A stretch of 32,000 nt of DNA from Salinisphaera sp. Q1T1-3 (GCF_003602005.1 NZ_QZWD01000001.1:176641-208640), one strand, 5' to 3'. Shown: positions 4,084 to 32,000, counted from the stretch's first letter. Numbers and translations: made by a program. Notes: a model not told the origin generated them from the sequence alone.

Positions 4084-4104
4084 TTCCCAAACGGAGCCCC
4101 TGCC

Positions 4105-5196: not shown

Positions 5197-5202
5197 CCAC
5201 CG

Positions 5203-15172: not shown

Positions 15173-16014
15173 CACGGGTCACTTTTCCCTATCGCGGCAC
15201 ACGCCGTCAAAGCAACGTCGTTGCGCCGGAGACCTCATCGACCGGCGTTCGTCTGGGGTTGCGCGGGCTCGACAAGCGTTTCGGCGCGACACATGTCCTC
15301 GATGCGATCGATCTGGCTATCACGCCGGGACAGTTCGTGGCGATCGTCGGGCGCAGCGGTTGCGGCAAGAGTACGTTGTTGCGACTGGTCGCCGGCCTGG
15401 AAACCGCAACCGACGGTGAGATCCGAGTCGACGATCAACCGGCCGCACGGCATGCAGCCGATACGCGATTGATGTTTCAGGATGCCCGCCTGCTGCCGTG
15501 GAAGCGCGTCGTCGATAATGTCGGCATCGGCCTGCGTGGCCGCTGGCAGGATAGGGCACGGGAGGTTCTGCACGATGTGGGACTGGCCGACAAGGCCGAT
15601 GCCTGGCCCGCCCAGCTCTCGGGCGGCCAGCAGCAGCGAGTCGCACTGGCACGTGCCCTGATACACCGTCCGCGGTTGTTGCTGCTCGACGAGCCGCTCG
15701 GCGCGCTGGACGCGCTGACACGGCTGGAGATGCAGTCGCTTATCGAAGCGCTCTGGCAACACCACGGTTTCACCGTGCTGCTCGTCACCCACGATGTGCC
15801 CGAGGCCGTACAGCTGGCCGATCGCGTGGTGGTACTGGAGCAGGGCGGCGTCGGACTCGATCTGGCTGTCGATCTACCACGCCCTCGCGAAGCGGCCACC
15901 CCGGCGGTGTCGGCCGTGGAAGGCCGCGTGCTCGATCGCGTGTTGGGACGCAGTGACGTGCCGACGTCGACGACCGCATCGGCCACGAGGTCGCGCACGG
16001 CCTCCGCACGGTGA
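15169..16014 (+). CDS. ssuB: Aliphatic sulfonate ABC transporter ATP-binding protein
   Basis: Walker [12 protein letters not shown], signature [15 protein letters not shown], Walker [12 protein letters not shown]. The ATG at 15169 overlaps the ssuC stop (ATGA). The ORF-track extension to 14956 lies inside ssuC. Confidence 0.85.
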
Positions 16015-17060
16015 GCGGCATGGCGTTCCGAAACCCTTCAAACCCGGCACATCTGACAATGACAGACCGATTCATCTCCGTTTTATGCCGTCGTCTCCCG
16101 GCGCTCGTTCTGATCGCCTGCGCGAGCTGGCCGGCGCTGGCGAGCGCCGCCGACCAGGTCGTTCGAATCGGGTATCAACGCTCCTCGACGCTCATGACGC
16201 TGCTGCGCGCTGATAAAACGCTGGAACAACAGCTGGCAGCCCAGGGCGTGACGATCGACTGGCACGAGTTCAACAGCGGGCTGCCGATGCTCGAGGCACT
16301 GAACACGGGCAGTCTCGATCTCAGTGCCGACGTGGCCGACACGGTGCCGATCTTCGCGCAGGCAGCCGGCGCCAACCTGGTGTTCTATGCCACCGAAGCC
16401 CCATCGCCACAGGGCCAGGCATTGATCGTGCACGCCGACAGCGATATCCATTCGCTGGCCGATCTGAAAGGCAGGCGCGTGACCGTGGCCCGCGGGGCCG
16501 GCGACCACTATCTGTTACTGGCGGCCTTGAAGCGTGCCGGTCTGTCACTCGACGACATCAAGGTCTCGTATCTGGCCCCACAGGATGCCAGTGCCGCGTT
16601 CGCACGGCACAGCGTGGACGGCTGAGTGGCCTGGGAACCGTATCTGTCGGCCGCGCGTGCCCGGGACAAGACGCGGACGATCGTCGACGGCGGCAACGGG
16701 CTGGCCAGCTATCGTCGCTTCTATCTCGCCTCGGCCGACTATGCCCGAGCCCATCCCCGGGTTCTGGACACGATCCACCGTGCCCTGACCCGGACCGGCC
16801 GCTGGGTCAGCCACCATCCGCAGGCCGCCGCGACCCGGCTGGCACCGCTCTGGGGGCAGATGACGCCGGCGGTGGTCCGACATGCCCTGGCCAATCGCAG
16901 CTACGACATCGAACCGGTGACCGCGGATCCGTTCGCCGAGCAGCAACGCATTGCCGACGCCTTCGAAAAAGCCGGCGTGCTGCCCCGACACGTCGATACG
17001 AGCAAGGCGCTGATCTGGCAGCCCGGCGCGACCCAACTGACAGGAGTACAACATGACTGA
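16011..17060 (+). pseudogene. ssuA: Sulfonate-binding protein SsuA interrupted by one in-frame TGA (16623-16625)
   Basis: ORFs 16011-16625 and 16626-17060 are in the same frame. Together they align with the intact paralog at 18263-19285: QVVRIGYQRSS vs DVVRIGYQKGS, and SVDG*VAWEPY vs DIDAWAVWDPY. The signal peptide is likeliest from ATG 16059 (MTDRFISVLCRRLPALVLIACASWPALASA). Confidence 0.7.
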
Positions 17061-18262: not shown

Positions 18263-19285
18263 ATGACCCGCTCCCCGCGTCCAGTCGCACAATCCGCCGC
18301 CGGCCACTTCTTTCGTGGCCGTATCACAGCCTGTGTCTGCCTTGTTCTGGCGCTTTTGGTCGGGTGGTCGAGCGCCATGGCGGCGAGCAGCCCGGATGTG
18401 GTGCGCATCGGTTACCAGAAAGGCAGCATTCTCACGCTGCTCAAGGCGCGAGGCACACTCGACGCCACCTTGAAAAAACGCGGTATCGACGTGCGCTGGG
18501 TGGAATTCGCGGCCGGCCCGCAGATGCTCGAGGCCATAAACGTCGGCAGTATCGACTTTGCCACGGTCGGCGATGCGCCGCCGATATTTGCGCAGGCCGC
18601 CGGCGCCGATCTGGTCTATATCTCGCGGACACCCGCCAATCCGCAAACGGAGGCGATTCTGCTGCCGCCGGACTCGTCGATTCACTCGATTGCCGACCTG
18701 AAAGGCCGGCGCATCGCACTGAACAAGGGCTCGGACGTGAATTATCTGGTAGCGGCAGCGCTTGAACGGGCTGGGCTTAAGTACAGCGATATCAAGCCAC
18801 GCTACCTCACGCCGAGCGACGCCCGTGCAGCGTTCGGTCGAGGCGATATCGATGCCTGGGCAGTCTGGGATCCGTACTACGCCGAGGCCCAGGCCAACGC
18901 CGGCGCGCGCGTCCTGACCGATGCACAGGACATCGTGCCGCATTACAGTTTCTATCTGTCGTCCCGGACGTTTGCCGAGCGACATCCCGATATCGTGACG
19001 CTGTTCAACCACGACGTGGCGGATCTGTGTCAGTGGACGCCGCGCCATGCAATGCAGGCGGCCGATATCCTGTCGCGCGCCACGGGGTTATCCCCGGCCG
19101 TCTGGCGAAAGACGATTGCACGCCACGATTACGGACTCGAACCGATGAGTCCATCCGTCTTCAAGGCACAACAGAAACTGGCGGACACCTTCTACGACAT
19201 CGGACTGATTCCGAAGCCCGTTACGGTGGCCGCCGCGCGCTGGCAGCCGACAAACAAATCCCGGATCGAATCGACGAATGAGTGA
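18263..19285 (+). CDS. ssuA: Second, intact sulfonate-binding periplasmic protein (SsuA paralog)
   Basis: Starts MTRSPRPVAQSAAGHFFRGRITACVCLVLALLVGWSSAMA (signal peptide), then DVVRIGYQKGSILTLLKARG...IDAWAVWDPYY. The ORF-track extension to 17837 overlaps ssuD in another frame. Confidence 0.85.
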   Translation: MTRSPRPVAQSAAGHFFRGRITACVCLVLALLVGWSSAMAASSPDVVRIGYQKGSILTLLKARGTLDATLKKRGIDVRWVEFAAGPQMLEAINVGSIDFATVGDAPPIFAQAAGADLVYISRTPANPQTEAILLPPDSSIHSIADLKGRRIALNKGSDVNYLVAAALERAGLKYSDIKPRYLTPSDARAAFGRGDIDAWAVWDPYYAEAQANAGARVLTDAQDIVPHYSFYLSSRTFAERHPDIVTLFNHDVADLCQWTPRHAMQAADILSRATGLSPAVWRKTIARHDYGLEPMSPSVFKAQQKLADTFYDIGLIPKPVTVAAARWQPTNKSRIESTNE

Positions 19286-19348: not shown

Positions 19349-19516
19349 GCGCATATGGGAATGGACGAGTCCTGACCGCGGGCTCGGTTTCTGGGTAATC
19401 GCGCGCGATCAAGCCGGGGGATCGGTATCCGCCGAACGTTCAAAACCATTGAAAACGCACGTTCACAGCGTACGCGGGTTGGCGTGCGCGGAATGAATCA
19501 ACAGGGAGTCCGATAC

Positions 19517-21079
19517 ATGATCAAGATCCACCGGCCGGGGTGCCTGCTGCTTGCCGGCACTGCAGGCCTCGGCATCGCGATGAGCCAGACGGCGATTGCC
19601 GCGAACGAGCCCAGCAATGCCGATCTCGCCAGACTGGTACAGCAACAGGCTGCCCAGATCCAGCAGCTCAAGCAACGCCTGCAGGCCGTTGAGCAACAGG
19701 AAAAAACAAGTCGCCAGACGTCGGTCGCAGCGACCTCGCGCCCGGTCAGTGCGAGCGATTCGCGCAAGAACGCACCGTCCGTGCCGGACGGCCAGGCCGC
19801 CAAACCGGCGGCATCGGAAGGCAACGACGCCGGAAATGCAACGCTGTCCAAACGCGTCGCGGCCCTCGAATCACAGGGTCTCAAGGTCGACTGGTCGGAT
19901 GGCGCGCCGGAATTCTCGAGCGCGGACGGGCAGTACAGCTTCGGCATCGGCGGCCGGGTCCAGTACGACTTCTCCACGACGAGCGGCTCCCGCTACGACG
20001 GCGCAGGCGACGAGGCCAACCTGAATTCGCGCAACATCACCGGCACTGAATTCCGTCGTGTGCGTCTGGATGCCCACGGCCAGATCACCGACCCGATCCT
20101 CTACAAGGTCGAACTCGATTTCGCCGGCAACGACGTCACGTTGCGTGATGCCTATCTGGCTGCGCAGAAGAAATTCGCACTGGGCAAGGGCACCATCTAT
20201 CTCGGCAACAAGCGCGCCGATCTGGGGCTCGATGCGGGCACATCCTCGAAATGGACCTGGTTCACCGAACGCAACACGGTGGCCAACGCCATTCTCTCGG
20301 AGGCCGGCACCTACAACACCGGCGCCTTCGGCTCGTTCAACGGCCATGATTGGCATTATTCGCTGGGCGTCACCAAGGGCGGCACAAGCACATCCAACCG
20401 CGCGTCCAACAATTTCGAGATCGCCAGCCGTGCCCACTGGGATCCGATCGATACCGGCAACACCATCGTCCATCTGGGCGTGAACGGTTTCTATGAGGAT
20501 ATCGATCGCGAACGCCAGGATCGCATCGCCAGCAACGAGATCATCGCCGGGCATTACAACGGCAACCTGCGCGTGGCCAGCGCCGCCGTCGACGATCCGA
20601 AAAGCAGTCATGCGTTCGGTTTCGAGCTGGCCGGGCTGACCGGGCCGTTCGCGGCGGGCGCAGAGTGGGGACGGCGCGACATCGAATCCCGTAATGGCCC
20701 GGGCACGCACTACACGGCTTATGCGGGCCAGGTCGGTTATTCACTCACTGGTGAAGCCTTCGGTTACTCGACGAGTCAGGGCGTCTGGACACATCCGGAT
20801 GTCGCGCATCCGGTCGGCCAGGGCGGTTGGGGCGCCTGGCAGCTCGTCGCACGCTATCAGGCGCTGGATTTTCAGAACAGCGGCCAGTATCGCGGCGGGA
20901 CCGGGCACGCGACGAGCGTCGGCCTGGACTGGTATCTCAACGATTGGGTCCGCGGCATTCTCGACTATAGCCGCTGGCAGACGAACAACCGTATACCGCT
21001 CGCCGGCACGCCGGACGACGGCTATTACGGCGCCGATGACGGGAACACGGTCAACGCGCGGGCACAGATCGTGTTCTGA
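19517..21079 (+). CDS. OprO/OprP-family (phosphate-selective porin O and P type) anion porin
   Basis: AGGGAG lies 8 nt upstream of ATG 19517. Signal peptide MIKIHRPGCLLLAGTAGLGIAMSQTAIA, then a coiled-coil-like QQQAAQIQQLKQRLQAVEQQ. Beta-barrel blocks FGIGGRVQYDF, FRRVRLDAHGQI..YKVELDFAGN.VTLRDAYL, and a C-terminal ...NARAQIVF. Confidence 0.8.
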   Translation: MIKIHRPGCLLLAGTAGLGIAMSQTAIAANEPSNADLARLVQQQAAQIQQLKQRLQAVEQQEKTSRQTSVAATSRPVSASDSRKNAPSVPDGQAAKPAASEGNDAGNATLSKRVAALESQGLKVDWSDGAPEFSSADGQYSFGIGGRVQYDFSTTSGSRYDGAGDEANLNSRNITGTEFRRVRLDAHGQITDPILYKVELDFAGNDVTLRDAYLAAQKKFALGKGTIYLGNKRADLGLDAGTSSKWTWFTERNTVANAILSEAGTYNTGAFGSFNGHDWHYSLGVTKGGTSTSNRASNNFEIASRAHWDPIDTGNTIVHLGVNGFYEDIDRERQDRIASNEIIAGHYNGNLRVASAAVDDPKSSHAFGFELAGLTGPFAAGAEWGRRDIESRNGPGTHYTAYAGQVGYSLTGEAFGYSTSQGVWTHPDVAHPVGQGGWGAWQLVARYQALDFQNSGQYRGGTGHATSVGLDWYLNDWVRGILDYSRWQTNNRIPLAGTPDDGYYGADDGNTVNARAQIVF

Positions 21080-21101
21080 CGCCGATACGGCCTGGTTGCG
21101 A

Positions 21102-21136
21102 AAGCCTTCGCGGTCCACTCTCGCGGGGGCTTTTTT
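21102..21136 (+). terminator. Rho-independent terminator after the porin gene
   Basis: AAGCCTTCGCG (21102-21112), a 9-nt loop, CGCGGGGGCTT (21122-21132, with two G:U pairs), then a T-run. Confidence 0.65.
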
Positions 21137-21313
21137 CGTCGACCGCCCCACCCACGGCATAGTCGAATTCACGAATAGCAAATCGACAAATCATATTTCT
21201 GGATTCAATACCGTTTGGTTATTTTCGTCGGCAACTAAATAACCGAATGTGAATCTCCGCCCGATAAGCGGTCAGCATTCGGTTGATGTCTCGATATAAC
21301 GAATGGTGTTTTG

Positions 21314-22324
21314 ATGCCCACGCGTATTCTGAAGAACCTCGGTGTTCTGTCGTTCGTCACGCTGGCCGGCGTGGCGTCTCTGCCGGCGCAGGCCGCCGAC
21401 CAGAACCTGCTCAATGTCTCGTTCAGCGTGACCCGACAGGTCTTCCAGGCCTATGACCCGGTGTTCGCCAAATACTGGAAGCAAAAAACCGGCCACACAG
21501 TCGACATTCACGATTCCTACGGGGGCTCCGGCAGTCAGTCTCGGGCTGTGATCGCCGGTCTTGATGCCGATGTGGTCACCCTGTCGGCGGCCGCCGACAT
21601 CAACGCCATCGCCGACAAAACCGGCCTGATCGCGAAGGACTGGCGCACACGGCTGCCCAATGACAGCTCGCCGTATTACACGCCGGCCGTGTTCCTCGTG
21701 CGCAAGGGTAATCCGAATATTCATGGTTGGGCGGACCTGACCCACAAGGGCGTTCAGGTGATCACGGCCAATCCGAAGACGTCGGGCGCGGCCCGCTGGA
21801 ACTTTCTTGCCGCCTGGGAATGGGCCGCGAGAAAAGGCGGAGACGAGGCCGCGAAAAAATACGTCACCCAGCTCTACAAGAACGTGCCGATGCTGCCGGC
21901 CAGCGGACGCAAGGCGACCACCGCATTCACACGTGGCGGTACGGGCGACGTGATGATCACGTACGAGTACGAAGCCAAACTCGCCCAGAAGAATTTTCCG
22001 GGCAAGGACTTCCAGATCGTGTATCCGAAATACACGATCAGCATCCAGCCGCCGGTCGCCGTCGTCGACAAGACCGCCAGACAACACGGCACGACCGAAC
22101 TCGCCCAGGCCTATCTGAAGCATCTCTGGAGCGATGAAGGGCAGCAGATCATCGCCGACAATGACCTGCGTCCGCGTAACGAAAAGATTCTGGCGGCCCA
22201 CGCCAAGGACTATCCGAAGGTCGAGACATTCACCGTGCCGGAAAAGTTCGGTAGCTGGCGTCAGGCCCAGAAACGGTTCTTCGACGAAGGCGCGATCTTC
22301 GATCAGATCTATCGCGCCCCGTGA
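21314..22324 (+). CDS. Sulfate/thiosulfate-binding periplasmic protein (Sbp/CysP)
   Basis: Signal peptide then LLNVSFSVTRQVFQAYDPVFAKYWKQKTGHTVDIHDSYGGSGSQSRAVIAGLDADVVTLS...YTPAVFLVRKGNP, which are typical Sbp/CysP blocks. The track start is TTG 21311, and ATG 21314 is more likely. Confidence 0.9.
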   Translation: MPTRILKNLGVLSFVTLAGVASLPAQAADQNLLNVSFSVTRQVFQAYDPVFAKYWKQKTGHTVDIHDSYGGSGSQSRAVIAGLDADVVTLSAAADINAIADKTGLIAKDWRTRLPNDSSPYYTPAVFLVRKGNPNIHGWADLTHKGVQVITANPKTSGAARWNFLAAWEWAARKGGDEAAKKYVTQLYKNVPMLPASGRKATTAFTRGGTGDVMITYEYEAKLAQKNFPGKDFQIVYPKYTISIQPPVAVVDKTARQHGTTELAQAYLKHLWSDEGQQIIADNDLRPRNEKILAAHAKDYPKVETFTVPEKFGSWRQAQKRFFDEGAIFDQIYRAP

Positions 22325-22337
22325 TCATCGATAACGG
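22325..22337. promoter_or_regulatory. Second copy of the ATCGATAACGG motif, in the 22-bp sbp-cysT spacer
   Basis: TCATCGATAACGGATC. The 11-mer ATCGATAACGG (22327-22337) is identical to 14233-14243, and 9 of 10 positions match the TTATCGATAA palindrome. Confidence 0.3.
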
Positions 22338-22346
22338 ATCGTTCTG

Positions 22347-23183
22347 ATGGCCATTCTGCTACGACGAGGCAATCCGTTGCCGGGTTTTGTTCCGGCAACG
22401 AGCCTGACCCTGATCTATCTCAGTCTGCTGGTGCTCATCCCGCTCGCCGCTGTCGTGCTGCGAGCCGCCGGTCTGAGCGGCGCTGAATTCTGGCGCGTGA
22501 TCACCTCACCCGAGGCCATGGCGTCCTATCGCCTGACTTTCGGCGCTGCATTCACGGCCGCCGCCCTGAATGCGGTGTTCGGGTTCATCGTGGCCTGGGT
22601 ACTGGTGCGTTATTCGTTTCCGCTACGCCGCGTGCTCGATGCCCTGATCGATCTGCCGTTCGCCTTGCCCACGGCTGTCGCGGGCATCGCCCTGGCAGCG
22701 CTCTACGGCAGCAACGGGTGGTTCGGCAAATCGCTGGCAATGCTCGGCATTCAGGTCGCTTATACGCCGGTCGGCGTGTTCATTGCCCTCATCTTCGTTG
22801 GCCTGCCGTTCGTGGTGCGCACGGTCCAGCCGGTCATCCAAGAGCTCGAGACCGAACAGGAAGAAGCGGCCGGCAGCCTGGGCGGGACCCGCTGGCAAGT
22901 CTTTCGTCGTGTCATCCTGCCGGCGCTCTGGCCGGCGGTCGTTACCGGTTTCACGCTGGCGCTGGCCCGTGGCATCGGCGAATACGGCTCGGTGATCTTC
23001 ATTGCCGGCAACGTCCCGGGCGTGTCACAGATCACGCCGTTCGTCATCTTCACCCGGCTCGAGGAGTTCGATTATCCGGCCGCGAGTGCGATTGCGGTCA
23101 CGTTGCTGGCGATCTCGTTGCTTCTCCTGCTCACGATCAACGGTCTGCAACAATGGCGCGCTCGCCGCGAGGGACGGGGATGA
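22347..23183 (+). CDS. cysT: Sulfate ABC transporter permease CysT (CysU)
   Basis: 278 aa with 6 TM helices and EAA loop EEAAGSLGGTRWQVFRRVILPALWP. Follows sbp/cysP. Confidence 0.9.
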   Translation: MAILLRRGNPLPGFVPATSLTLIYLSLLVLIPLAAVVLRAAGLSGAEFWRVITSPEAMASYRLTFGAAFTAAALNAVFGFIVAWVLVRYSFPLRRVLDALIDLPFALPTAVAGIALAALYGSNGWFGKSLAMLGIQVAYTPVGVFIALIFVGLPFVVRTVQPVIQELETEQEEAAGSLGGTRWQVFRRVILPALWPAVVTGFTLALARGIGEYGSVIFIAGNVPGVSQITPFVIFTRLEEFDYPAASAIAVTLLAISLLLLLTINGLQQWRARREGRG

Positions 23184-24094
23184 TGGCTGATATCACGGCC
23201 AACGCCGGGCGCGTCGTACCGGCCTCCGGCAATACGCGCGTGGCCCACCGGGCCGCTGCCGATGAGCCGATCTGGGTGCGCCGATCACTGATCGGCCTCG
23301 TATTCGTCTTTCTGGGGGTATTTCTCGTCGTGCCTCTGGCCATCGTGCTTTCCAGTGCGCTGTCTCAGGGCTGGGCGCTCTATGCCCGGGCGGTGACCGA
23401 TCCGGATACCTGGTCGGCGATCGTCCTGACGCTCTGGGTCGTGGCGATCACCGTGCCGCTGAACACGCTGTTCGGCATCGCGGCGGCCTGGGCGATCGCC
23501 CGTTTCGATTTCCGGGGACGCAGCGTGCTCACCTCGCTGATCGATCTGCCGTTCTCGGTCTCGCCGGTGGTTGTCGGGCTGGCCTATGTTCTGGTTTTCG
23601 GCCGCGGCGGCTGGCTCGGTCCATGGCTCGGCGCGCATGACATCCAGATCATATTCGCGATGCCGGGCATGGTGCTCGTGACCATGTTCGTCACGGTGCC
23701 GTTCGTGGCCCGCGAGCTGATCCCGGTACTCGCCGAACGTGGTCAGGAAGAGGAAGAGGGCGCCTTGTCGCTCGGTGCCTCGGGTTGGCAGACGTTCTTC
23801 CGCGTCACGCTGCCGGCCGTGAAATGGGGGCTGTTGTACGGCGTGGTGCTGACCACCGCGCGCGCACTCGGCGAGTACGGCGCCGTGGCGGTCGTCTCGG
23901 GACGCGTTCCCGGCGAAAACGAAACACTCACGCTGCGTGTCGACATGCTCTACGAGAACTACCAGGCCACGGCTGCGTTCGCGGTGGCCTCGCTGCTGGC
24001 GGTGATCGCCCTGATCACGCTCGTGCTCAAGACCTATCTCGGCGACCGCAAGGACAACGCCTGCCCGTTATCGGCCGGCGCGCCGGATTCATAG
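23180..24094 (+). CDS. cysW: Sulfate ABC transporter permease CysW
   Basis: The ATG at 23180 overlaps the cysT stop (ATGA). MMADITANAG..., EAA loop EEGALSLGASGWQTFFRVTLPAVKW. The ORF-track extension to 22718 lies inside cysT. Confidence 0.9.
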   Translation: MMADITANAGRVVPASGNTRVAHRAAADEPIWVRRSLIGLVFVFLGVFLVVPLAIVLSSALSQGWALYARAVTDPDTWSAIVLTLWVVAITVPLNTLFGIAAAWAIARFDFRGRSVLTSLIDLPFSVSPVVVGLAYVLVFGRGGWLGPWLGAHDIQIIFAMPGMVLVTMFVTVPFVARELIPVLAERGQEEEEGALSLGASGWQTFFRVTLPAVKWGLLYGVVLTTARALGEYGAVAVVSGRVPGENETLTLRVDMLYENYQATAAFAVASLLAVIALITLVLKTYLGDRKDNACPLSAGAPDS

Positions 24095-24103
24095 AGACCT
24101 GCA

Positions 24104-25180
24104 ATGAGTATCCAGATATCCAATGTGTCCCGGGCTTTCGGCAATCACCGAGCCCTGGCCGACATCAACCTGCGCATCGAGCCCGGTGAGCTGGTCGCGT
24201 TGCTCGGGCCGTCCGGCTGCGGCAAGACCACGCTGCTACGCATCATCGCCGGACTCGAGCAGCCGGATCAGGGCACGCTCGAACTCGAAGGCCAGGATGT
24301 GGTTTCGCGCCACGTGCGCGATCGCGGCATCGGCTTCGTTTTTCAGCATTACGCGTTATTCCGGCACATGAGCGTGTTCGAGAACGTGGCCTTCGGCCTG
24401 CGCGTTCGGCCACGCCGGACACGCCCGATCGAAACCGAGATCCAGCGGCGTGTGCATGAACTGCTCGAACTCGTGCAGCTGGACTGGCTGGCCGATCGCT
24501 ATCCGCCACAACTCTCCGGCGGGCAGCGTCAGCGCATTGCGCTAGCCCGCGCTCTGGCAGTCGAGCCGCGTGTACTGTTGCTCGACGAACCCTTCGGGGC
24601 GCTGGATGCCAACGTGCGGCGGGATCTGCGACGCTGGCTTGTCCGGCTGCATGACGAGTTGCACGTCACGAGCGTGTTTGTCACGCATGATCAGGAAGAG
24701 GCCATGGAAGTCGCCGATCGGATCGTGGTCATGAACCAGGGTCGGATCGAACAGTACGGCACGCCCGATGAAGTTTATGAAACCCCTGCCACGGCGTTCG
24801 TTTCGCGATTTCTGGGAGATGTGAACCTCTTCCACGGACGGATCGAGCAGGGTCAGTTGCACACGGCAGCCTTCGGCGCCCGGGCGACCGCCACGCCGGC
24901 CGGCGAGGGCGCTTCGGTTCAAGCGCATGTGCGGCCGCACGAGCTGCGCCTGCGACGCGATGCCGGCCCGAATACCGATCTGCTGCCCGTGCGTATCCGC
25001 CGGATTCGCCCCCTTGGCGCTGATGTCCGTATCGAGCTCGATGCCGAAGGCGAAACCGGGCCGATCCAGGTCGTGTTGCCGCGTCACGAATACCGGCAGC
25101 AGGCGTTTTCGGAAGGCGAGCAGGCTTACGTGGAGCCGACACAGCTCCACGTCTTCGACGGCGATCAGAAACGCGCCTGA
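24104..25180 (+). CDS. cysA: Sulfate ABC transporter ATP-binding protein CysA
   Basis: Walker [12 protein letters not shown], signature [15 protein letters not shown], Walker [12 protein letters not shown], and a C-terminal TOBE-like regulatory domain. Confidence 0.9.
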
Positions 25181-25194
25181 ACGCGACGCGCCCC

Positions 25195-25469
25195 AGGGCC
25201 TGTTGATGTTTCGTGCGAGTCCGCGCCCAGTGCGCCCTGAAATTGACGATGGGCGGCAAGACGAGGCGTCGTGCGCGCCGTGCCGCCATGCTGCATCCGC
25301 GGGCTACAACGCTGGATTGCCGTCGTATTCTTGATTTTGGGGCGCTTGTCCCTTCGGGTGGGCCGCCCATGAAAAATCGACGATGGGCGCCCGGCAGCGT
25401 TGCGAGCCTTGCCGGACACACGGCGGTCTCTCGACGAAAAGGCGCTCGAACGAAACCTCACAGGCCCTA
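25195..25469. mobile_element. MITE-like structured intergenic repeat, copy C (inverted relative to A and B)
   Basis: Imperfect ~25-nt terminal inverted repeat: AGGGCCTGTTGATGTTTCGTGCGAG (25195-25219) and CTCGAACGAAACCTCACAGGCCCT (25445-25468). The interior is colinear with the reverse complement of copy B: GGCAAGACGAGGCG vs GGCAAGACAAGGCG, CAACGCTGGATTGC vs CAACGCCGGACTGC, and GCCTTGCCGG vs GCCTTGCCTGGCCGG. Confidence 0.55.
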
Positions 25470-26819
25470 GACTGCCTCGGAACGGAACGAGGCCACGATA
25501 CGACGGACCAGACGATCAACATCAATCGCCAGCTCGGGCACGGCCGTATGTTCCCATACATCGCCCCGCGACCGGACACCCAGCACATGCAATCGCGCGG
25601 CCAACGGCTTCAGCCCGAGCCGGTGCGGGGCGACCGTGGCTCGGCCGGTCGCAAGGAGCTGTCGCAGCAGGGCGGTGTCGGGATGGTTTGGATCGGTAAC
25701 CAACCCCGTACAGTTGACAACCCGGGCCGCGGAGAGCGATGAGCCTTCCGCGCCGGCACGTGGCCGCAACGTGAGCGCCAGCCGATCATCCGGCGCCGGA
25801 TCGCAGGCCAGAAGTCTGGCGGCGACAATCCGCAGCCGGCCACTGGCACGCAGGCGTTCCACGCGACGTGCGACTTCGGGGGCGAGGCGGTGACGACAGA
25901 TATCCCAGTAGGGCCGGGCATGTCGCAGCAACCGCGCGCGTATTCGCGGGTCCAATGCCTGCCAGATGGCATCGGCCTGTGCGCGCAGCTCGTCACTGAC
26001 GCGGCGCCAATCGCCGGTAGTCTGCATTCGGGCCCGCACCGCCTTCATCAGCGCGACCGCCGAATGGAGCGGCCAATCGGAGACGGGCGCCGGTGCGGCT
26101 TGTAGACTGGCGTCGGCGGCAACGGGGGCATGTGCGGCCGGCACCAGGCCGCGTCGCGAGACCGCGATGATGGGGCCGCGATGGCCTTGTCTATCGAGTT
26201 CGATGATGCCGTCCATGGCCGTCTGTCCGGTACCGATCAACACGATGGGATCGTCGCGTTGTGTTGCGGCGACATGCCAGGCCCCCGGCGCCCAGGGATC
26301 GGCGTGATAACCCGGATGGTCGGCGGCATCCCTCATGGCGACCGGTGTACGCGGCCGCTCGGCGCCGACGGCGAGCACGACGTGTCTTGCCCACGGCACC
26401 TGCCCGCTGCGGCATCGCACCTGCCAATACTCGGGCGATGAACCCGGCTCTATCGCCATCGCTTCATCGAGCCGCACCTGCAAGCCGGCGCGTCGGGCAG
26501 CCGCGAGACAATCCGCGAGATAGTGGCGATACCACGCACGCGGCAGGAAGTCCCGATCATCGACGTCGTGGCCGAGACGACGCACGAACTCGACGAATTC
26601 CTGTGGCCGATCAGGGCAGGCTGTCATACGCACGGCCGGCGTGTTGAGCTGATGCATCGGGCCGGGGTGTCGATAGGCCGGCCCGAAGAACGCCTCGCGT
26701 TCCAGGACAAGCACCCGCCGCTGCGGCTGCGCCATGAGCAGCCGTCTCGCGGTCGCGATCCCGCAAAAGCCGCCGCCGATGATGATCACATCGAACTCGT
26801 CTGTCGCTCTCAACGCCAT
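25467..26819 (-). CDS. FAD/NAD(P)-binding oxidoreductase (YdhS-like, NAD_binding_9-type)
   Basis: Dinucleotide fold FDVIIIGGGFCGIATARRLL near the N-terminus and a second Rossmann-like IVLIGTGQTAMDGIIEL. I chose the start at ATG 26819 (MALRATDEF...) because a sigma-54 promoter occupies 26857-26872. The track start is 26930. Confidence 0.65.
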   Translation of the reverse strand: MALRATDEFDVIIIGGGFCGIATARRLLMAQPQRRVLVLEREAFFGPAYRHPGPMHQLNTPAVRMTACPDRPQEFVEFVRRLGHDVDDRDFLPRAWYRHYLADCLAAARRAGLQVRLDEAMAIEPGSSPEYWQVRCRSGQVPWARHVVLAVGAERPRTPVAMRDAADHPGYHADPWAPGAWHVAATQRDDPIVLIGTGQTAMDGIIELDRQGHRGPIIAVSRRGLVPAAHAPVAADASLQAAPAPVSDWPLHSAVALMKAVRARMQTTGDWRRVSDELRAQADAIWQALDPRIRARLLRHARPYWDICRHRLAPEVARRVERLRASGRLRIVAARLLACDPAPDDRLALTLRPRAGAEGSSLSAARVVNCTGLVTDPNHPDTALLRQLLATGRATVAPHRLGLKPLAARLHVLGVRSRGDVWEHTAVPELAIDVDRLVRRIVASFRSEAV

Positions 26820-26856
26820 CAAACGCTGCCCGTCTCGAAAGTTGCAGCGCCCTGAG

Positions 26857-26872
26857 GGCAATATGTGCGCCA
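26857..26872 (-). promoter_or_regulatory. Near-consensus sigma-54 (-24/-12) promoter for the YdhS-like gene
   Basis: The - strand reads TGGCGCACATATTGCC against the consensus TGGCACG-N4-TTGCW. GG and GC are correctly spaced and TTGC is perfect. It lies about 38 nt upstream of ATG 26819 and immediately downstream of a sigma-54 activator gene. Confidence 0.6.
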
Positions 26873-26926
26873 TGTCGAAAACCGCGAAAACACGCGTCGG
26901 CGTGGCGCGAAGCGTCATATAAGACA

Positions 26927-26944
26927 CCATGTGCCGTCACATGG
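26927..26944 (-). terminator. Hairpin between the activator gene and the sigma-54 promoter (weak terminator or protein site)
   Basis: CCATGTG/CACATGG 7-bp stem with a 4-nt loop. On the - strand it is followed by TGTCTTATAT. Confidence 0.35.
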
Positions 26945-26983
26945 GACGCTTCTTGTCATATACGACAGACATGCTGTGGTGCG

Positions 26984-26993
26984 TTATCGATAA
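26984..26993. promoter_or_regulatory. Third copy of the TTATCGATAA palindrome, about 112-121 nt upstream of the sigma-54 -24 element
   Basis: Perfect 10-bp palindrome that overlaps the activator stop codon (TAA on the - strand). The distance suits an enhancer/UAS or another operator. Confidence 0.3.
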
Positions 26994-28624
26994 TCGCCCG
27001 CGGCAAGCCCGTGTTTTCGCAGCCGTGCTCGCAGGGTGCTCGGGTTGATGTCCAGCAATTGCGCAGCACCGCCGGGGCCGTGGACACGGCCCCGGCAGTG
27101 GCGCAGTGCAGCGATGATGTGTTGGCACATCGCCTCGTCGAGGCTCATCCAATCGGCCGCATCGTCGTCGAGCGGCTCTGCGCACATCGGGCGGGCGATT
27201 TCGGCCTCGCCGGCGACGGTCGTCGGCATGTTGAAACCGAGCGCACGCGCTAACGCAAGTTCGCGACCGTCGCCCAGAATCGCGGCACGCTCGATAACGG
27301 CCATCATCTCGCGCACGTTGCCGGGCCAGTCATAATGTCGGAGCATCACCATATCCGCATCGCTTGGCAGCACCTCGGGCAGACCGAGGCGCCGTGCGAC
27401 CCGGCGGGCGATGTGCTGCGCCAACTCGGCGATATCGTCGGCGCGATCGGCCAGGCGTGGAATCCGGATTGGAAAAATGGCGATGCGGTACCACAGATCG
27501 GCCCGGAACTGCCCCTGGGACACCATGGCGACCAGATCCCGATGGGTCGCCGCGACGATGCGGACATCGCTGCGGATTTCCTGTTCGCCGCCAACGCGCT
27601 GGAACGTGTGATCCTGCAACACGCGCAGCAGCCGGACCTGGGCCGGCAGTGGCAGCTCGCCGATCTCGTCGAGAAAGAGGGTGCCGCCATCGGCGCGTTC
27701 GAACCAGCCGCGCCGATGGCGTATGGCGCCGGTAAAACTGCCTTTTTCGTGGCCGAAAAGCTCGGAATCGATCAGTTCGGCCGGGATCGCACCACAGTTC
27801 ACACGAATGAAAGGCGCCTCGGCACGGGACGAGCGATCATGGATGCTCCGGGCGATGACTTCCTTGCCGGTACCGGTCGCGCCAAGCAGCAAAACCGTTG
27901 TATCGGAACCGGCCACGGCGTTGGCCTGGCGCATCGTGTCACGCAGCCCGCCGTCCTCGCCGACAATCCGATCGCGCAGCGTATGCCGCCCAAGGCGTTG
28001 CAGCAACGATTCACGATCGGCATCGATCCGGGCGCGTAACTGGTCGAGCTCGGCGCTGCGTCGATGATTGCGAAGCGCCTGGGCAAGCGGGGCGAGGGCA
28101 GCATCCCGCAGGGCAGTCTCCGAACTCGTCCGAGGCTGATCCGGCGATATGTCCGCAATCGCGAACCCGTCGCCCGAGCCGTCAGCGAGGCGAAACACGA
28201 GTCTTCGCCGGCCCGTGCCGGGGGAACCGAAGACTGACAGGGCACCCGCCGCGGCGTCAGCGGACAGGGCATAGAGATCGTGTCGTTCGAACGAAGCCGC
28301 AAGCGCCCTGATCTGTTGCGCGTCCAGATTCGCGTTGACAGAGACGACCTCGCCAATCCCTGACATGGTCTCCAGACGCCGGTTCTCACTGTCGAGACGG
28401 TCGATTCTCAGACCACTCACCACGAATGCTTCGGCGAGAATGTCGTGGATGCGCGGCAGCACCTCGTCGAGCCGCGCGTGCGATGCCACGGCCTGCCAGA
28501 CGCGCACGGCCTGATCGTGCGATGGCGCGACGGCGCCGCTTGGCCGCGGGGCGTGTATGACGGCGTCTCGATGTGTTTCGCGGTGCTGTGATGCGGCCGC
28601 CGACTCGGATGACAAGACGTTCAT
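26984..28624 (-). CDS. Sigma-54-dependent transcriptional activator (bEBP): N-terminal sensory domain (probably GAF-like), AAA+ domain and C-terminal HTH
   Basis: Walker A LLLGATGTGKEVIAR, GAFTGA-loop variant EKGSFTGA, Walker B GGTLFLDEIGELP, plus VRIVAATHRDL and C-terminal GPGGAAQLLDINPSTLRARLRKHGL. The ATG at 28624 overlaps the upstream stop (ATGA). The track extension to 29020 lies inside the upstream gene. Confidence 0.85.
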   Translation of the reverse strand: MNVLSSESAAASQHRETHRDAVIHAPRPSGAVAPSHDQAVRVWQAVASHARLDEVLPRIHDILAEAFVVSGLRIDRLDSENRRLETMSGIGEVVSVNANLDAQQIRALAASFERHDLYALSADAAAGALSVFGSPGTGRRRLVFRLADGSGDGFAIADISPDQPRTSSETALRDAALAPLAQALRNHRRSAELDQLRARIDADRESLLQRLGRHTLRDRIVGEDGGLRDTMRQANAVAGSDTTVLLLGATGTGKEVIARSIHDRSSRAEAPFIRVNCGAIPAELIDSELFGHEKGSFTGAIRHRRGWFERADGGTLFLDEIGELPLPAQVRLLRVLQDHTFQRVGGEQEIRSDVRIVAATHRDLVAMVSQGQFRADLWYRIAIFPIRIPRLADRADDIAELAQHIARRVARRLGLPEVLPSDADMVMLRHYDWPGNVREMMAVIERAAILGDGRELALARALGFNMPTTVAGEAEIARPMCAEPLDDDAADWMSLDEAMCQHIIAALRHCRGRVHGPGGAAQLLDINPSTLRARLRKHGLAAGDYR

Positions 28625-29829
28625 GCCAGCGCGCGCGCCGGCCAGGATAGAGGCGCCCGCGCGGGGTCGAGCCGACCGGCATGAGCAGCCGCGCAGTAGC
28701 GGCCGGTCGCCGCCATAGCCGCCGGTCGCTCGCACGGTCCCTGATACAGGAGTGTGCCGCGCCGATCGTCGCGCGCGACTTGCCAACCCTGGCCACGCAA
28801 TGAACCGCCGTGCACGGCCACCGGGAGACCGGGCAGATCCAGATGCCAGCCCTGCGGCCCGACCAGAGGCGGGGCATGTCCACAGATGGCAGACGCAATC
28901 ACACGCGCTTCTTGCCGCAGCATCCGTTCGTCCGTCAGATCGAATCGCTTGGGCGTGGCCGTGCAGGCATCGATGGCATAAATCGCCGGATCGCTCGTGC
29001 GCCCACGCGTATCGACACAAACGCCGCGACGTGTCGAACGCAGGCCGGCCGCCATGGCCAACCGGGCATCGCCCGGCACCCGATCGGCCCAGATCATATG
29101 ATCGACATTCAGGGCAGTTCCGTCATCCAGGCTGATGGCTACCGGGCGCTGCACCGCCTGGCAGCGCACGATACGACGCGCCCCGTGTATCACCACATTG
29201 GGATGTTCGAGGGCCTGCAGAATCCGGCGGGGAAGCGGGGCGGGCAGTTGGGTCTCAAGCGGTGTCTCCGTCGCCAGGATCCACTCGACTTCCACGCCGC
29301 TCCGGCTCAACAGCTCGACCACGCGGCAGGCCAACCCCTCGTGACCGTAGACGGCGACGTGTCGCAGTCGTCGATTGTCCAGTCGCTCGAGCAGCGTTCG
29401 CGCGCCCGAAAACGTGGCAGCCTGAATGCAGCGGGGCTGTTCGTATCGGAACGCGGTTCTCGCACGGTGCCCGGTGGCCAGGACCGCGGCTGAGTAATCG
29501 ATCGGGGCATGCGTGGTCATTGCGCGTCGGCCCGTGCGATCGAGACCGAGGACGCGCGTGTGTGCATGCAGTGTCACGCCCAGCTCCTGCGGATCCACAT
29601 GGCCGTGCTCGAGCGCCAGACCCGGCGCATGCGCCGTCGCCAGATAATTCTGGGGCTGGGCATAGCGAATCTGGGTGCCATCATCACCACTGACCAGCGT
29701 CAGCGGCCGCTCACGGTCGAGCCGGCGGATCTCGTCGGCCACCGCCCAGGCGGTGGCGCCGCCGCCAATGATCAGAACCGACGCGTCGGTACGTGCGGGT
29801 GAAATGCCGGTCATGTCGAAACCATCCAT
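28621..29829 (-). CDS. FAD-dependent pyridine nucleotide-disulfide oxidoreductase family protein (rubredoxin/ferredoxin-reductase or NorW-like fold)
   Basis: FAD fold SVLIIGGGATAWAVADEIRRL, central strand VAVYGHEGLACRVVELL in place of GxGxxG, late motif DPAIYAIDACT (compare IYAIGDC), and a reductase-C-like tail. An alternative start is Met-6 at 29814. Confidence 0.75.
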   Translation of the reverse strand: MDGFDMTGISPARTDASVLIIGGGATAWAVADEIRRLDRERPLTLVSGDDGTQIRYAQPQNYLATAHAPGLALEHGHVDPQELGVTLHAHTRVLGLDRTGRRAMTTHAPIDYSAAVLATGHRARTAFRYEQPRCIQAATFSGARTLLERLDNRRLRHVAVYGHEGLACRVVELLSRSGVEVEWILATETPLETQLPAPLPRRILQALEHPNVVIHGARRIVRCQAVQRPVAISLDDGTALNVDHMIWADRVPGDARLAMAAGLRSTRRGVCVDTRGRTSDPAIYAIDACTATPKRFDLTDERMLRQEARVIASAICGHAPPLVGPQGWHLDLPGLPVAVHGGSLRGQGWQVARDDRRGTLLYQGPCERPAAMAATGRYCAAAHAGRLDPARAPLSWPARALA

Positions 29830-29831
29830 CC

Positions 29832-30440
29832 TCAGGCAGATTCCGCGATCGGCTCGGGCACCGGGCCCGCACTCGGCGTGGGGAATATCCGGGCATCGAG
29901 CCAGCGCACGCTGCTGATCCAGAGCCCTAGATAATCGATCCCGGCACCCCGATTGACGATATGGAAGACCTGTCCGACGGCATCGAACAACACCAACCGG
30001 TTGTCAACCGGGACCACCGAATCGAGCAGGCGGGTAAAGGCCCGGTCGGTCAGCAGGCCCGGGTATCCGTGGGCCAGCGGCCGCAGGATCTCGTGAACCA
30101 GATGCCAGGTGTCCGAATGGGCCGGATCGCCGATGGGCAGATCGAAACTTCCGTTGTGCATCAAATAGATACCGCGATCAATCTTGAACGGATGAGCATT
30201 GCAGGCGCTCACGGCGCCGTAGGTCTTGCGACGCAGATGGATTGCCAGTTCGGAATCGCGATGACGGCGAAGAAACGTCATGGCACGCGTCGAATCGACC
30301 GCTACATGACGTTCGACGACGGTTTCGCCCGACGCAGTACGGCCCATCACGCCCCAGCCATCGGCGTTGTAGATCGCCGCCGCCTCGATCAGCGTGTCCG
30401 GAACGGCGATGCCTGCCGGCTTATGTATCAGTACGCACAT
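29832..30440 (-). CDS. Ntn-hydrolase / class-II glutamine amidotransferase-like protein (N-terminal Met-Cys)
   Basis: With the ATG at 30440 the protein begins MCVLIHKP..., and it carries ADGWGV, HLRRKTYGAVSACNAHPF and LMHNG blocks typical of YafJ/GATase_4-like Ntn enzymes. GAGG lies 9 nt upstream of this ATG. The track start is 30449. Confidence 0.7.
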   Translation of the reverse strand: MCVLIHKPAGIAVPDTLIEAAAIYNADGWGVMGRTASGETVVERHVAVDSTRAMTFLRRHRDSELAIHLRRKTYGAVSACNAHPFKIDRGIYLMHNGSFDLPIGDPAHSDTWHLVHEILRPLAHGYPGLLTDRAFTRLLDSVVPVDNRLVLFDAVGQVFHIVNRGAGIDYLGLWISSVRWLDARIFPTPSAGPVPEPIAESA

Positions 30441-30666
30441 CGTGTTCATCCTCGACTTTGCCGACCAGAACCTGGGTTGCCTTGAACAGACCGACCGCCG
30501 GATCGCCGATCCGCAGGCCCATCGCGTGTAACGAACTCGTGGTCACGACGGCCGACATCACGCCAGCCGCCGTTTCGATCTCGACTTCCGACATCACGGC
30601 GCCGGCGTGGATGTGAATCACACGCCCGCGAAACTGATTACGGGTATTGATCCGATGTCCGCTCAT
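30421..30666 (-). CDS. Molbindin (Mop) / single TOBE-domain oxyanion-binding protein
   Basis: 81 aa. INTRNQFRGRVIHIHAGAVMSEVEIETAAGVMSAVVTTSSLHAMGLRIGDPAVGLFKATQVLVGK matches the molbindin/TOBE pattern S/TxRNQ..G.V......G.V..EV.... Its 3' end overlaps the next gene by 20 nt. Confidence 0.75.
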   Translation of the reverse strand: MSGHRINTRNQFRGRVIHIHAGAVMSEVEIETAAGVMSAVVTTSSLHAMGLRIGDPAVGLFKATQVLVGKVEDEHDVRTDT

Positions 30667-30880
30667 CGAAAAATCGCTCTCGTGATGGAAATAGAAAAGG
30701 GCCCATGACAGGCCCGCGAATGCGGACGCGTCGGTGTCCGACGCGCCGAGGCCTGAACCAGATCAATCGTCGACATCAATGGACATTCGACGACCACACA
30801 ACAGTGCGACGCCGCAACAACCGCGACAAATAACCGGCTGGCCCGAGCGGCATATCAGTAGAGCGGGCATCCATTGGGCT

Positions 30881-30896
30881 TGCATAGGCTTCGCCA
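30881..30896 (-). promoter_or_regulatory. Candidate sigma-54 promoter about 215 nt upstream of the mop-like gene
   Basis: The - strand reads TGGCGAAGCCTATGCA. GG and GC are at consensus spacing, and the -12 region is ATGCA rather than TTGCA. It shares the TGGCG start with the promoter at 26872. Confidence 0.35.
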
Positions 30897-32000
30897 GAAT
30901 CGTGTATGCCGCGACAAATGCGGCGGCCGAACAACGGGCCGAAATCGAGTCTCAAGATAGCCAGGGCGCCTTATTACGTGAATGAAGAAAACACGCTTTG
31001 TTAATCGCGAGATTGGATAAGGCGAGCGGCGCCGATCGGCAATATGTCTTCTGCGTGACGCGCCGAAAAGCCAGATCAGTCGGTCAAGGCGGCTACCAGA
31101 AGAACGCCTTGATCGACTTCCGTGGACGGGCAGCTGAGCGCATCGCGCGCAGCGATACAAAAGCGCCTCGTAGCGAACGATGAATCACAAACCATCGGTC
31201 AACCCACACGAGCCGTGGAGACGGCGCGATCTCAACCGTTGAGGCTGTGGCTGATTCATTCGCGCGCAGCTCCACACGGCAATCCCGCGCCACGACACGG
31301 GATAACGACATCCGCGCCGAAACCGCTTCGAGGGGCAAGCATGAACAAAGCCCGTGTGATCGGGCAGACCGCGTCAGACGAGCGCAGAGATATGAACAGA
31401 GTTCTCTGGATGACAGTTGGTGGCCGCCCAACAGAGCCGCTGCAACGCTGTCACCAATGGGTGACCGGCAACGGTGTCCATACATTATTTAACATAATAT
31501 ACATTATGCGCAGTTATAAAGCGCTATCGAAGACGACTGCATACAGCCTCGCGCGACCATCACACGGCTCGATCTCTCTGAGCCCGCGCGCTCAAACGCC
31601 GTCGTGAAAGCGGATGCTGCGCGCCTGCTGGCGCGCGTTGCTTCTTGTCGTCCGCGGATCGCCCGTGCTGGCTGGCGTCGCAAGCACGCGCCCTGGGTTG
31701 GCCACTTCGTCGTAAGTCACGGCGAACGCTGGGCGCCCACTGGGATGCCTCAAACATGTCTCAAACCATTGAGTATTCGAGTTAGCGAACTCCGGCGGCT
31801 GCCTGGAGACGGCCAAACGTAGAGCGTGGTCGCCGTTGGTGTTTGGTTCGCATTGCGGGTCCACTCGCCACAGAGGAAGCGCAGGTGCTTCGCTTTGCTT
31901 CAGGAGATCGATCGCCGTCACGACGAGCGCGGTTCCGAGTGATCAGACGCATCCAAAGTCGCGGGCGCGAGAGACGACTTGCTCGGAAACGGCCCATCAA

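Follow-up and report, generated by a model that had tools for sequence, protein, structure and literature searches.

What do five closely packed genes next to sulfate and sulfonate uptake genes do together, and are they one regulated unit? The question is raised by a 32,000-nucleotide stretch of the genome of Salinisphaera sp. Q1T1-3 (GCF_003602005.1, NZ_QZWD01000001.1:176641-208640), hereafter the window. Its minus strand encodes a small TOBE/Mop protein, an N-terminal nucleophile (Ntn) hydrolase, a NorW-like flavoprotein, a bacterial enhancer-binding protein (bEBP, a sigma-54 activator) and a YdhS-like flavoprotein (Table 1). An initial annotation had taken these genes as one sigma-54-controlled module without a match to any characterised operon. 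We found that the region holds two conserved sub-units, the TOBE-Ntn pair and the bEBP with the YdhS-like flavoprotein. Judged from sequence and by analogy with known circuits, the region is probably a lineage-specific extension of the sulfate-starvation (sulfur-scavenging) regulon, arranged as two transcription units with an SfnR-like sigma-54 sub-circuit.

The TOBE-Ntn pair and its sulfate operon setting

Gene neighbourhoods were surveyed in one genome per species at 79 loci, onto which the window proteins were mapped by tblastn; the taxa were mostly Nevskiales (Solimonas, Nevskia, Hydrocarboniphaga, Panacagrimonas, Stagnimonas) together with Salinisphaera. Gene orders of the relatives were taken from these maps and from called genes, and greedy open reading frame (ORF) calling in high-GC loci gave spurious ORFs on the opposite strand. 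Of 70 testable loci, 66 had the TOBE gene immediately upstream of Ntn; a sulfate-binding protein gene (sbp) lay upstream in 51 of 62 and cysT-cysW-cysA downstream in 41 of 54. A bEBP gene was observed within 10 kb of the Ntn gene in 8 of 71 loci and a YdhS-like gene in nine of 71, within or after the sulfate operon in these nine, and the NorW-like flavoprotein gene was observed in none of 71. The co-occurrence expected from the initial annotation was therefore retained for TOBE and Ntn, lost for the NorW-like flavoprotein and limited to a few loci for the bEBP. A single conserved sigma-54 unit of five genes is not what the survey showed, as none of the 71 species-level loci had the five-gene order. 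The unit of five is therefore specific to its lineage, and the robust unit is TOBE-Ntn, robustly tied to sulfate uptake.

Usually, and chiefly in Nevskiales, the pair was set within a sulfate ATP-binding cassette (ABC) transporter operon, sbp-TOBE-Ntn-cysTWA. In Solimonas and a second genome the called genes gave the order porin-sbp-(sbp)-TOBE-Ntn-(sbp)-cysTWA, with a divergent bEBP gene in one, and the Panacagrimonas operon read sbp-TOBE-Ntn-sbp-TOBE-YdhS-like-cysTWA, its second TOBE gene paired with a second enzyme. The location of TOBE-Ntn homologues within sulfate ABC operons in most genomes having them strongly supports the sulfur link that had been offered as a guess. In the window itself the genes for ssuB, ssuA, ssuD, a phosphate-type porin, sbp, cysT, cysW and cysA lie on the adjoining plus strand (Pfam, NCBIfam), so that the module and this island of sulfate and sulfonate uptake genes are convergent; the ssu, sbp and cys identities noted earlier all held in NCBIfam. 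Other Salinisphaera carried the Ntn gene without TOBE, once adjoining genes for a luciferase-like monooxygenase and a flavin mononucleotide (FMN) reductase.

The TOBE protein is a single domain (PF03459, 51.8 bits against a Pfam cut-off of 22.3) and scored 52.9 bits with the TIGR00638 Mop model, just below the cut-off of 55. It keeps the NTRN and KAT oxyanion-binding motifs ((S/T)xRN and KA(S/T)) and aligns to ModG and Mop structures. Its best match in a plasmid collection (46.5% identity) was the gene at the ssuF position of a Ralstonia sbp-ssuEADCB-TOBE cluster that runs on to cysTWA. On this Ralstonia megaplasmid (L090, 6001-8745) the interval from the ssuF-like TOBE gene to cysTWA holds a gene for an esterase and an EAL-like one that is annotated 'diguanylate phosphodiesterase'. 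Several gammaproteobacterial metagenome-assembled genomes (L067-L070) had a weakly EAL-like gene of ~270-315 residues and a gene for a 411-residue flavoprotein after TOBE-Ntn. Accessory hydrolases within sulfate operons seem to be a recurring theme without explanation.

The Ntn protein matched GATase_4 marginally (23.1 bits against a Pfam cut-off of 23). The MC start proposed for it, with Cys as the N-terminal nucleophile once Met is removed, was shared by all 25 aligned homologues, among which C2, R70, T73, G75, N81, N96, G97 and D110 were invariant. In a profile search of PDB sequences C2, R70, T73, N96, G97 and D110 aligned to GlmS C1, R73, T76, N98, G99 and D123, respectively. In class II amidotransferases, residues of this kind serve as the nucleophile, bind the alpha-carboxylate and alpha-amine of glutamine, and form the oxyanion hole. 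The AlphaFold2 (AF2) model (predicted local distance difference test score, pLDDT, 90.5) had the four-layer alpha-beta-beta-alpha Ntn fold. Its top Foldseek matches were the GlmS glutaminase domain, EgtC, PA1307 and PurF (1xff, 4zfk, 1te5 and 1ecb), with probability 1.0 and modest template modelling (TM) scores of 0.45-0.59. Taken together, the invariant residues and the model fold predict a compact stand-alone Cys-Ntn amidohydrolase, which should recognise free glutamine or a gamma-glutamyl moiety. The protein was 99% identical to an annotated hypothetical protein of Salinisphaera sp. Q1T1-3; the public annotation begins it at MIHKP, dropping the catalytic Cys, and this start appears to be too late.

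The Ntn family was small in a word-indexed protein search (38 clusters), and an exhaustive profile search returned 6271 cluster representatives when the limit was E <= 1e-10 and 534 when it was E <= 1e-30; many have long C-terminal tails. Relatives were encoded on 161 IMG/VR viral contigs. Among the 80 viral loci whose neighbourhoods were counted (L092-L171), 77 had an amidoligase-like gene within 4 kb of the Ntn relative, and 10 also had a RimK-like ATP-grasp gene; the same comparison found no amidoligase or ATP-grasp gene in the bacterial TOBE-linked loci. The link to phages speaks for chemistry on gamma-glutamyl or peptide amides by the Ntn fold, and the comparison shows the TOBE-linked bacterial clade to be an offshoot separate from the phage proteins. 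Distant Ntn homologues (~36% identity) were also observed without TOBE in Ideonella and Hydrogenophaga (L079, L080, L082, L083), each with a conserved sigma-54-like site, GGGAACGCGACTTGCA or TGGAACAGCCCTTGCG, exactly 50 nucleotides (nt) before the start codon.

The pair could instead be non-catabolic and act at the post-translational level, sensing or regulating the sulfate ABC transporter or sulfate activation, with Ntn as a signalling amidase; it could, for example, buffer molybdate, selenate or chromate that enters through a derepressed CysPTWA transporter. We consider this unlikely. The position of the pair between sbp and cysT in most Nevskiales operons fits it, as do the best alignments of the TOBE protein with molybdate-binding proteins, its Mop/ModG oxyanion motifs, and chromate transporter genes close by in two loci. 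However, the glutamine-binding and catalytic residues of Ntn are all invariant, suggesting a working enzyme, and the pair stands apart from the transporter genes in Salinisphaera, some of which keep Ntn without TOBE.

Probable transcription units, the bEBP and the YdhS-like flavoprotein

The six-frame ORF list and the minus-strand sequence reproduced all five genes as initially annotated, together with the 20-nt overlap of TOBE and Ntn, the TGAggATG junction of Ntn and flavoprotein, and the ATGA overlap of flavoprotein and bEBP. The order TOBE-Ntn-flavoprotein-bEBP was observed only in three near-identical metagenome contigs (L005-7), with Ntn 81% identical and protein identities of 62-88%. 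These contigs carry an extra gene of 292 codons, whose product had no Pfam match and no BLAST similarity to the EAL-like genes following TOBE-Ntn in L067-70.

The bEBP and the YdhS-like gene form the second conserved unit, so called because their adjacency recurs in two unrelated contigs (L089 and L172) with full-length bEBP relatives. End-to-end alignments that include the N-terminal domain were obtained with the bEBPs of L089 (48% identity), L172 (46%) and L002 (46%). The gene order in L089 is FMN reductase, SfnB/DszC-like oxygenase, bEBP, YdhS-like and DUF2292; the bEBP gene is divergent from a cysteine dioxygenase-YdhS-like operon in L172 and from a Nevskiales-type sulfate operon in L002. 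A small DUF2292 gene lay directly after the divergent bEBP gene in L002 (5889-6095) and directly after the YdhS-like gene in L089 (6263-6442), and no DUF2292 counterpart was seen in the window.

Sigma-54 sites were sought as GG-N10-GC and TGGCAC-N5-TTGCW, scored over 11 consensus positions. The hairpin (26944-26927) and sigma-54 promoter that had been noted before the YdhS-like gene were both recovered, TGGYRC-N5-TTGC having 2 matches in the window against 0.4 expected. Only four sites in the 64 kb of strand in the window match 9 or more of the 11 consensus positions, and this promoter, TGGCGCacataTTGCC, is among them. Upstream of it by 45-95 nt, two 12-nt palindromes separated by 41 nt flank the hairpin and had no other exact match in the window. 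A GG-N10-GC site also stands 25-40 nt before the first gene in both L089 and L172, as TGGACCggttcTTGCG ~30 nt before the YdhS-like gene in L089 and as TGGCCTactcgGTGCT preceding the cysteine dioxygenase-YdhS-like operon in L172. On these motif criteria the YdhS-like gene is the only one of the two transcription units with a credible sigma-54 promoter.

The second sigma-54 site of the initial annotation, TGGCGAagcctATGCA upstream of TOBE, fared less well; it matches 8 of 11 positions, and its GG is not conserved in L005-7. It is probably not a promoter, as sites of this quality occur at ~0.5 per kb per strand in the window, which is chance level. Its ATGCA is the start of a small ORF. Other lineages have sigma-54-like sites 60-90 nt upstream of TOBE-Ntn, with genes for short bEBPs alongside; sigma-54 control of the pair is real there and unproven here.

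The leader upstream of TOBE has a terminator-like hairpin (Table 1). In L005-7, which have a divergent gene upstream, the hairpin differs in sequence and keeps its shape. A 40-codon ORF with five Cys codons (MQAQWMPALLICRSGQPVICRGCCGVALLCGRRMSIDVDD) was observed in this leader (30699-30885, minus strand; L005 9547-9775), and its start and stop positions are conserved in L005. The hairpin and ORF may represent attenuation or a leader peptide; covariation would need more than two sequences. Over 25000-32000 Rfam gave no match to a riboswitch or any other RNA family, and the leader fold was not unusually stable (z = -1.5).

Adjacency of the five genes by chance, with independent acquisition, unrelated roles and only TOBE-Ntn as a real unit, seems quite unlikely to us. 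It would account for the missing five-gene order, for a NorW-like gene confined to close relatives and for the extra gene in the closest of these. Against it, the junctions overlap or are 2 nt apart, implying co-translation of four genes, the four-gene order is kept in L005-7 at the protein identities given above, and the bEBP/YdhS-like adjacency recurs in unrelated contigs.

Profile searches recovered most of the domains that had been proposed for the five proteins (TOBE, GATase_4 marginally, Pyr_redox_2, Sigma54_activat and NAD_binding_9), with GAF and Reductase_C as the exceptions. The bEBP contains Sigma54_activat (PF00158, 231.9 bits), AAA_lid_14 and HTH_8 (27.8 bits), with GSFTGA as its GAFTGA-type loop. 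Its N-terminal domain spans ~215 residues; instead of the expected GAF domain, residues 1-215 had no match in Pfam or PDB sequences, and a word-indexed protein search with them returned nothing. The best NCBIfam matches of the bEBP, NifA (324 against a cut-off of 529) and NorR (318 against 476), cover only the generic AAA+ core. The NorW-like flavoprotein matched Pyr_redox_2 (81.8 bits, Pfam) and had no Pfam match to Reductase_C. It scored 82 bits with the NorW model against a cut-off of 392 (NCBIfam), its best PDB sequence match was rubredoxin reductase (2v3a, E 1.6e-16), and no redox-active Cys motif was seen in it. Among the related loci it was found only in L005-7, and a metagenome scan found no relatives.

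The exclusion of norRVW in the initial annotation stands, since its defining features were tested and were lacking (no flavorubredoxin, sub-threshold NorR and NorW scores, no GAF match), as does that of nif/mod, with no nif or mod genes present. A role in nitrogen/molybdenum metabolism, or in nitric-oxide/redox stress, for a NifA- or NorR-type activator, NorW-type reductase, amidotransferase and molbindin has the best NCBIfam names and the Mop match of TOBE in its favour, but is highly improbable because the synteny over ~70 genomes is with sulfate/sulfonate genes, and the NifA, NorR and NorW scores, far under cut-off, reflect generic AAA+ or flavin adenine dinucleotide (FAD) cores only.

The YdhS-like protein contains NAD_binding_9 (PF13454, 93.4 bits), and both of its dinucleotide motifs are invariant in the homologue alignment (G15, G17, G20 and G196, T200, D203). 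Its AF2 model, built on 34 homologues, had a pLDDT of 91.1 and as top PDB folds PvdA, SidA, KtzI and FzmM, class B N-hydroxylating flavin monooxygenases (TM 0.62-0.68); a sequence comparison with PDB chains detected the N-terminal FAD motif only. The public annotation of Salinisphaera sp. Q1T1-3 gives this protein 422 residues, dropping the homologue-invariant N-terminal GxGxxG FAD motif, and its start appears too late. A literature search found nothing on YdhS function and no substrate for any PF13454/YdhS member. Several homologues are fused to a cysteine dioxygenase domain (CDO_I, PF05995), one of these fusions adjoining a TauD gene (L088, 1616-3613), another homologue comes after a sulfonate-type ABC transporter, and in L172 (839-4617) the cysteine dioxygenase gene is translationally coupled with the YdhS-like gene. 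These contexts hint at a route from thiol to sulfinate, sulfonate and sulfite, and suggest that the YdhS-like protein may carry out sulfur oxygenation of a thiol-derived compound, for example of a sulfinate to a sulfonate ahead of SsuD/TauD.

Table 1. Features of the five-gene region and the adjoining sulfate operon, in window coordinates
Feature	Position	Strand	Basis
TOBE/Mop gene, SsuF-like, 81 aa	30421-30666	-	ORF list, Pfam
Ntn hydrolase gene, 202 aa, MC start	29832-30440	-	ORF list, Pfam, homologue alignment
FAD flavoprotein gene, rubredoxin-reductase/NorW-like, 402 aa	28621-29829	-	ORF list, Pfam
bEBP (sigma-54 activator) gene, 546 aa	26984-28624	-	ORF list, Pfam
YdhS-like NAD_binding_9 gene, 450 aa	25467-26819	-	ORF list, Pfam
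Sigma-54-type promoter TGGCGCacataTTGCC, 38 nt upstream of YdhS-like ATG	26857-26872	-	consensus scan
Candidate activator-binding palindrome GTCGTATATGAC, distal	26955-26966	-	exact-match search
Candidate activator-binding palindrome GTCTTATATGAC, proximal, ~45 nt upstream of -24 element	26914-26925	-	exact-match search
Hairpin CCATGTGacggCACATGG between palindromes; weak terminator-like element after bEBP gene	26927-26944	-	sequence
Sigma-54-like site TGGCGAagcctATGCA of the initial annotation, upstream of TOBE	30881-30896	-	8/11 consensus positions
Terminator-like hairpin and U-run in leader, ~35 nt before TOBE start	30699-30715	-	sequence
Porin-sbp-cysT-cysW-cysA sulfate uptake operon, convergent	19484-25180	+	Pfam, NCBIfam

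Elsewhere in the window, an SsuA-like ORF (16011-16625), with ssuD after it at 17053, covers no more of its model than positions 7-178 of 319. A gene for a sulfonate-binding protein has probably been truncated or frameshifted here, and a full-length ssuA paralogue lies at ~18300-19285. A cobalt chelatase/cobalamin cluster (216-9012; cbtA, a ChlI/VWA-type AAA protein, a CobB/CobQ-like amidotransferase, cobW, cobN) is unrelated to the module. Upstream of the module (30700-32000) the GC content falls to 0.595 from ~0.66, and no ORF there has a Pfam match.

Proposed scheme and points against it

A sulfate-starvation extension of this kind could work as follows. Unit 1 (TOBE-Ntn-flavoprotein-bEBP) would be transcribed from a promoter that is probably not sigma-54 dependent and may be under sulfur-status control, by analogy with Pseudomonas sfnECR. 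Its small, SsuF-like TOBE protein would bind an oxyanion (sulfate, sulfite, thiosulfate or molybdate), and Ntn would be a cytoplasmic Cys-nucleophile gamma-glutamyl amidohydrolase. The latter would release glutamate from a sulfur compound with a gamma-glutamyl group, for which glutathione or gamma-Glu-Cys is most plausible, with the cysteine sulfur recycled. We infer an interaction of the coupled TOBE protein with Ntn, whose activity it may gate by oxyanion supply, or it may handle the oxyanion. The bEBP, encoded last in unit 1 and presumably responding to a ligand of its sensor domain, would occupy both GTCkTATATGAC palindromes and from there switch on the sigma-54 promoter at 26872-26857. 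Unit 2 driven from it would supply the YdhS-like enzyme, a putative single-component heteroatom (sulfur) oxygenase using FAD and NADPH (the reduced form of nicotinamide adenine dinucleotide phosphate), for example from sulfinate to sulfonate or from thioether to sulfoxide. The product of this enzyme would pass into the desulfonation route to sulfite through the neighbouring SsuD.

The most specific form of this scheme, an oxyanion-gated glutathionase in which TOBE senses sulfate or sulfite and controls Ntn, together with YdhS/PF13454 as a single-component NADPH/FAD sulfur oxygenase, is tentative and, taken jointly, rather unlikely. If true, its glutathionase part would mobilise cysteine from glutathione in sulfate starvation. 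It would be the bacterial equivalent of yeast Dug2/Dug3, and an entire order, the Nevskiales, would carry it within the sulfate transporter operon. The oxygenase part would work with cysteine-dioxygenase-type enzymes and SsuD/TauD, under a dedicated SfnR-like sigma-54 activator.

Several observations weigh against the assignment to a sulfate-starvation regulon with an SfnR-like sub-circuit. TOBE proteins classically bind molybdate, not sulfate. In L005-7, no sigma-54 site with at least seven matches was found in the 487 nt upstream of TOBE. Short bEBPs without a sensor domain flank TOBE-Ntn in other lineages, and the regulator type therefore varies. Identity in the bEBP central domain is non-diagnostic, and the likeness to SfnR is one of gene layout. 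The LysR gene in the window (13279-14193) is PtrR-like rather than CysB-like and was rejected as a CysB candidate. The role of the NorW-like flavoprotein is left unexplained by the scheme, and the nearest Ntn relatives outside the clade, the amidoligase-coupled phage proteins, point to gamma-glutamyl/peptide-tag chemistry and not to sulfur specifically.

The comparison gives a sulfur-starvation context to three orphan groups: the ~200-residue Ntn clade, the SsuF-type TOBE proteins and the YdhS/PF13454 flavoproteins, which include an uncharacterised E. coli protein. If true, the gamma-glutamyl hydrolase and sulfur-oxygenase roles would be new steps in bacterial sulfur scavenging, would explain two extra genes in the sulfate transporter operon of a whole gammaproteobacterial order, and would extend sigma-54/SfnR-type control of sulfur assimilation beyond Pseudomonas. 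Should the roles not be confirmed, the cluster would be an ordinary part of the sulfate-starvation regulon, specific to its lineage.

Comparison with known systems

The Ntn protein resembles the EgtC and YafJ/PA1307 group in its Cys1 nucleophile, oxyanion-hole Asn-Gly and glutamyl-holding Arg and Asp, with fold matches to 4zfj-4zfl and 1te5. EgtC hydrolyses a gamma-glutamyl-cysteine-derived sulfur compound. In contrast to this group the Ntn protein is shorter (~200 against 230-270 residues), with 14-19% identity and TM scores of 0.45-0.6; no ergothioneine genes are present, and Ntn has a TOBE partner. Iyer et al. are said to have described in 2009 a trio of amidoligase, class II GATase and ATP-grasp in LUZ24-like, phiEco32 and OM43 phages. 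The N-terminal domain of the phage GATase is the nearest large homologue group of the Ntn protein (27-39% identity over the full domain, MC start), but the phage proteins have long C-terminal tails and, in most loci, an amidoligase gene nearby, which none of the bacterial TOBE-linked loci has. The phage trio is already known (PMC3890496, PMC10580990) and functionally unsolved.

The window TOBE protein and SsuF are both single TOBE-domain proteins of ~70-80 residues encoded in sulfate-starvation gene clusters. SsuF is one of the small Mop-like proteins known to occur in sulfate-starvation operons. It is needed for sulfonate desulfurization, its function being unknown (PMC4267179). Unlike ssuF in ssuEADCBF, the window TOBE gene lies outside the ssu operon and is translationally coupled to the Ntn hydrolase gene and not to ssuB, and in Nevskiales the TOBE gene sits within the sulfate transporter operon.

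For the YdhS-like protein, the class B flavin monooxygenases (PvdA, SidA, KtzI; FMO/Tmm) match in predicted fold and in both dinucleotide-binding motifs, but sequence identity is just 14-18%. One of them, Tmm, is described as oxidising dimethyl sulfide (PMC13352529).

The layout of the region as a whole is closest to the CysB/SfnR hierarchy. This runs in Pseudomonas putida and P. aeruginosa from sfnECR or msuEDC-sfnR to the sigma-54 promoters of sfnFG and sfnA. According to the titles of SfnR papers cited in PMC8234197, a CysB-dependent sulfur-scavenging operon of Pseudomonas ends in a bEBP gene, and the bEBP activates the sigma-54 promoter of a flavin oxygenase gene. The window likewise has a sigma-54 activator as the last gene of a probable sulfur-scavenging operon, proposed to fire the sigma-54 promoter of a flavin oxygenase-like gene, and in L089 the bEBP relative comes after an FMN reductase and an SfnB/DszC-like oxygenase, the place that sfnR has behind sfnE and sfnC. 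The differences are that the upstream genes of the window encode TOBE, Ntn hydrolase and a NorW-like flavoprotein, that a single-component FAD enzyme, YdhS-like, takes the place of the two-component SfnG as the target, and that the window bEBP has its N-terminal domain of ~215 residues. The view that the module matches no characterised operon therefore holds for the enzymes, none of which belongs to one, and gives way for the regulatory layout, which mirrors the CysB/SfnR hierarchy. The circuit is arranged like a known one; its enzymes are different, and none of them is characterised.

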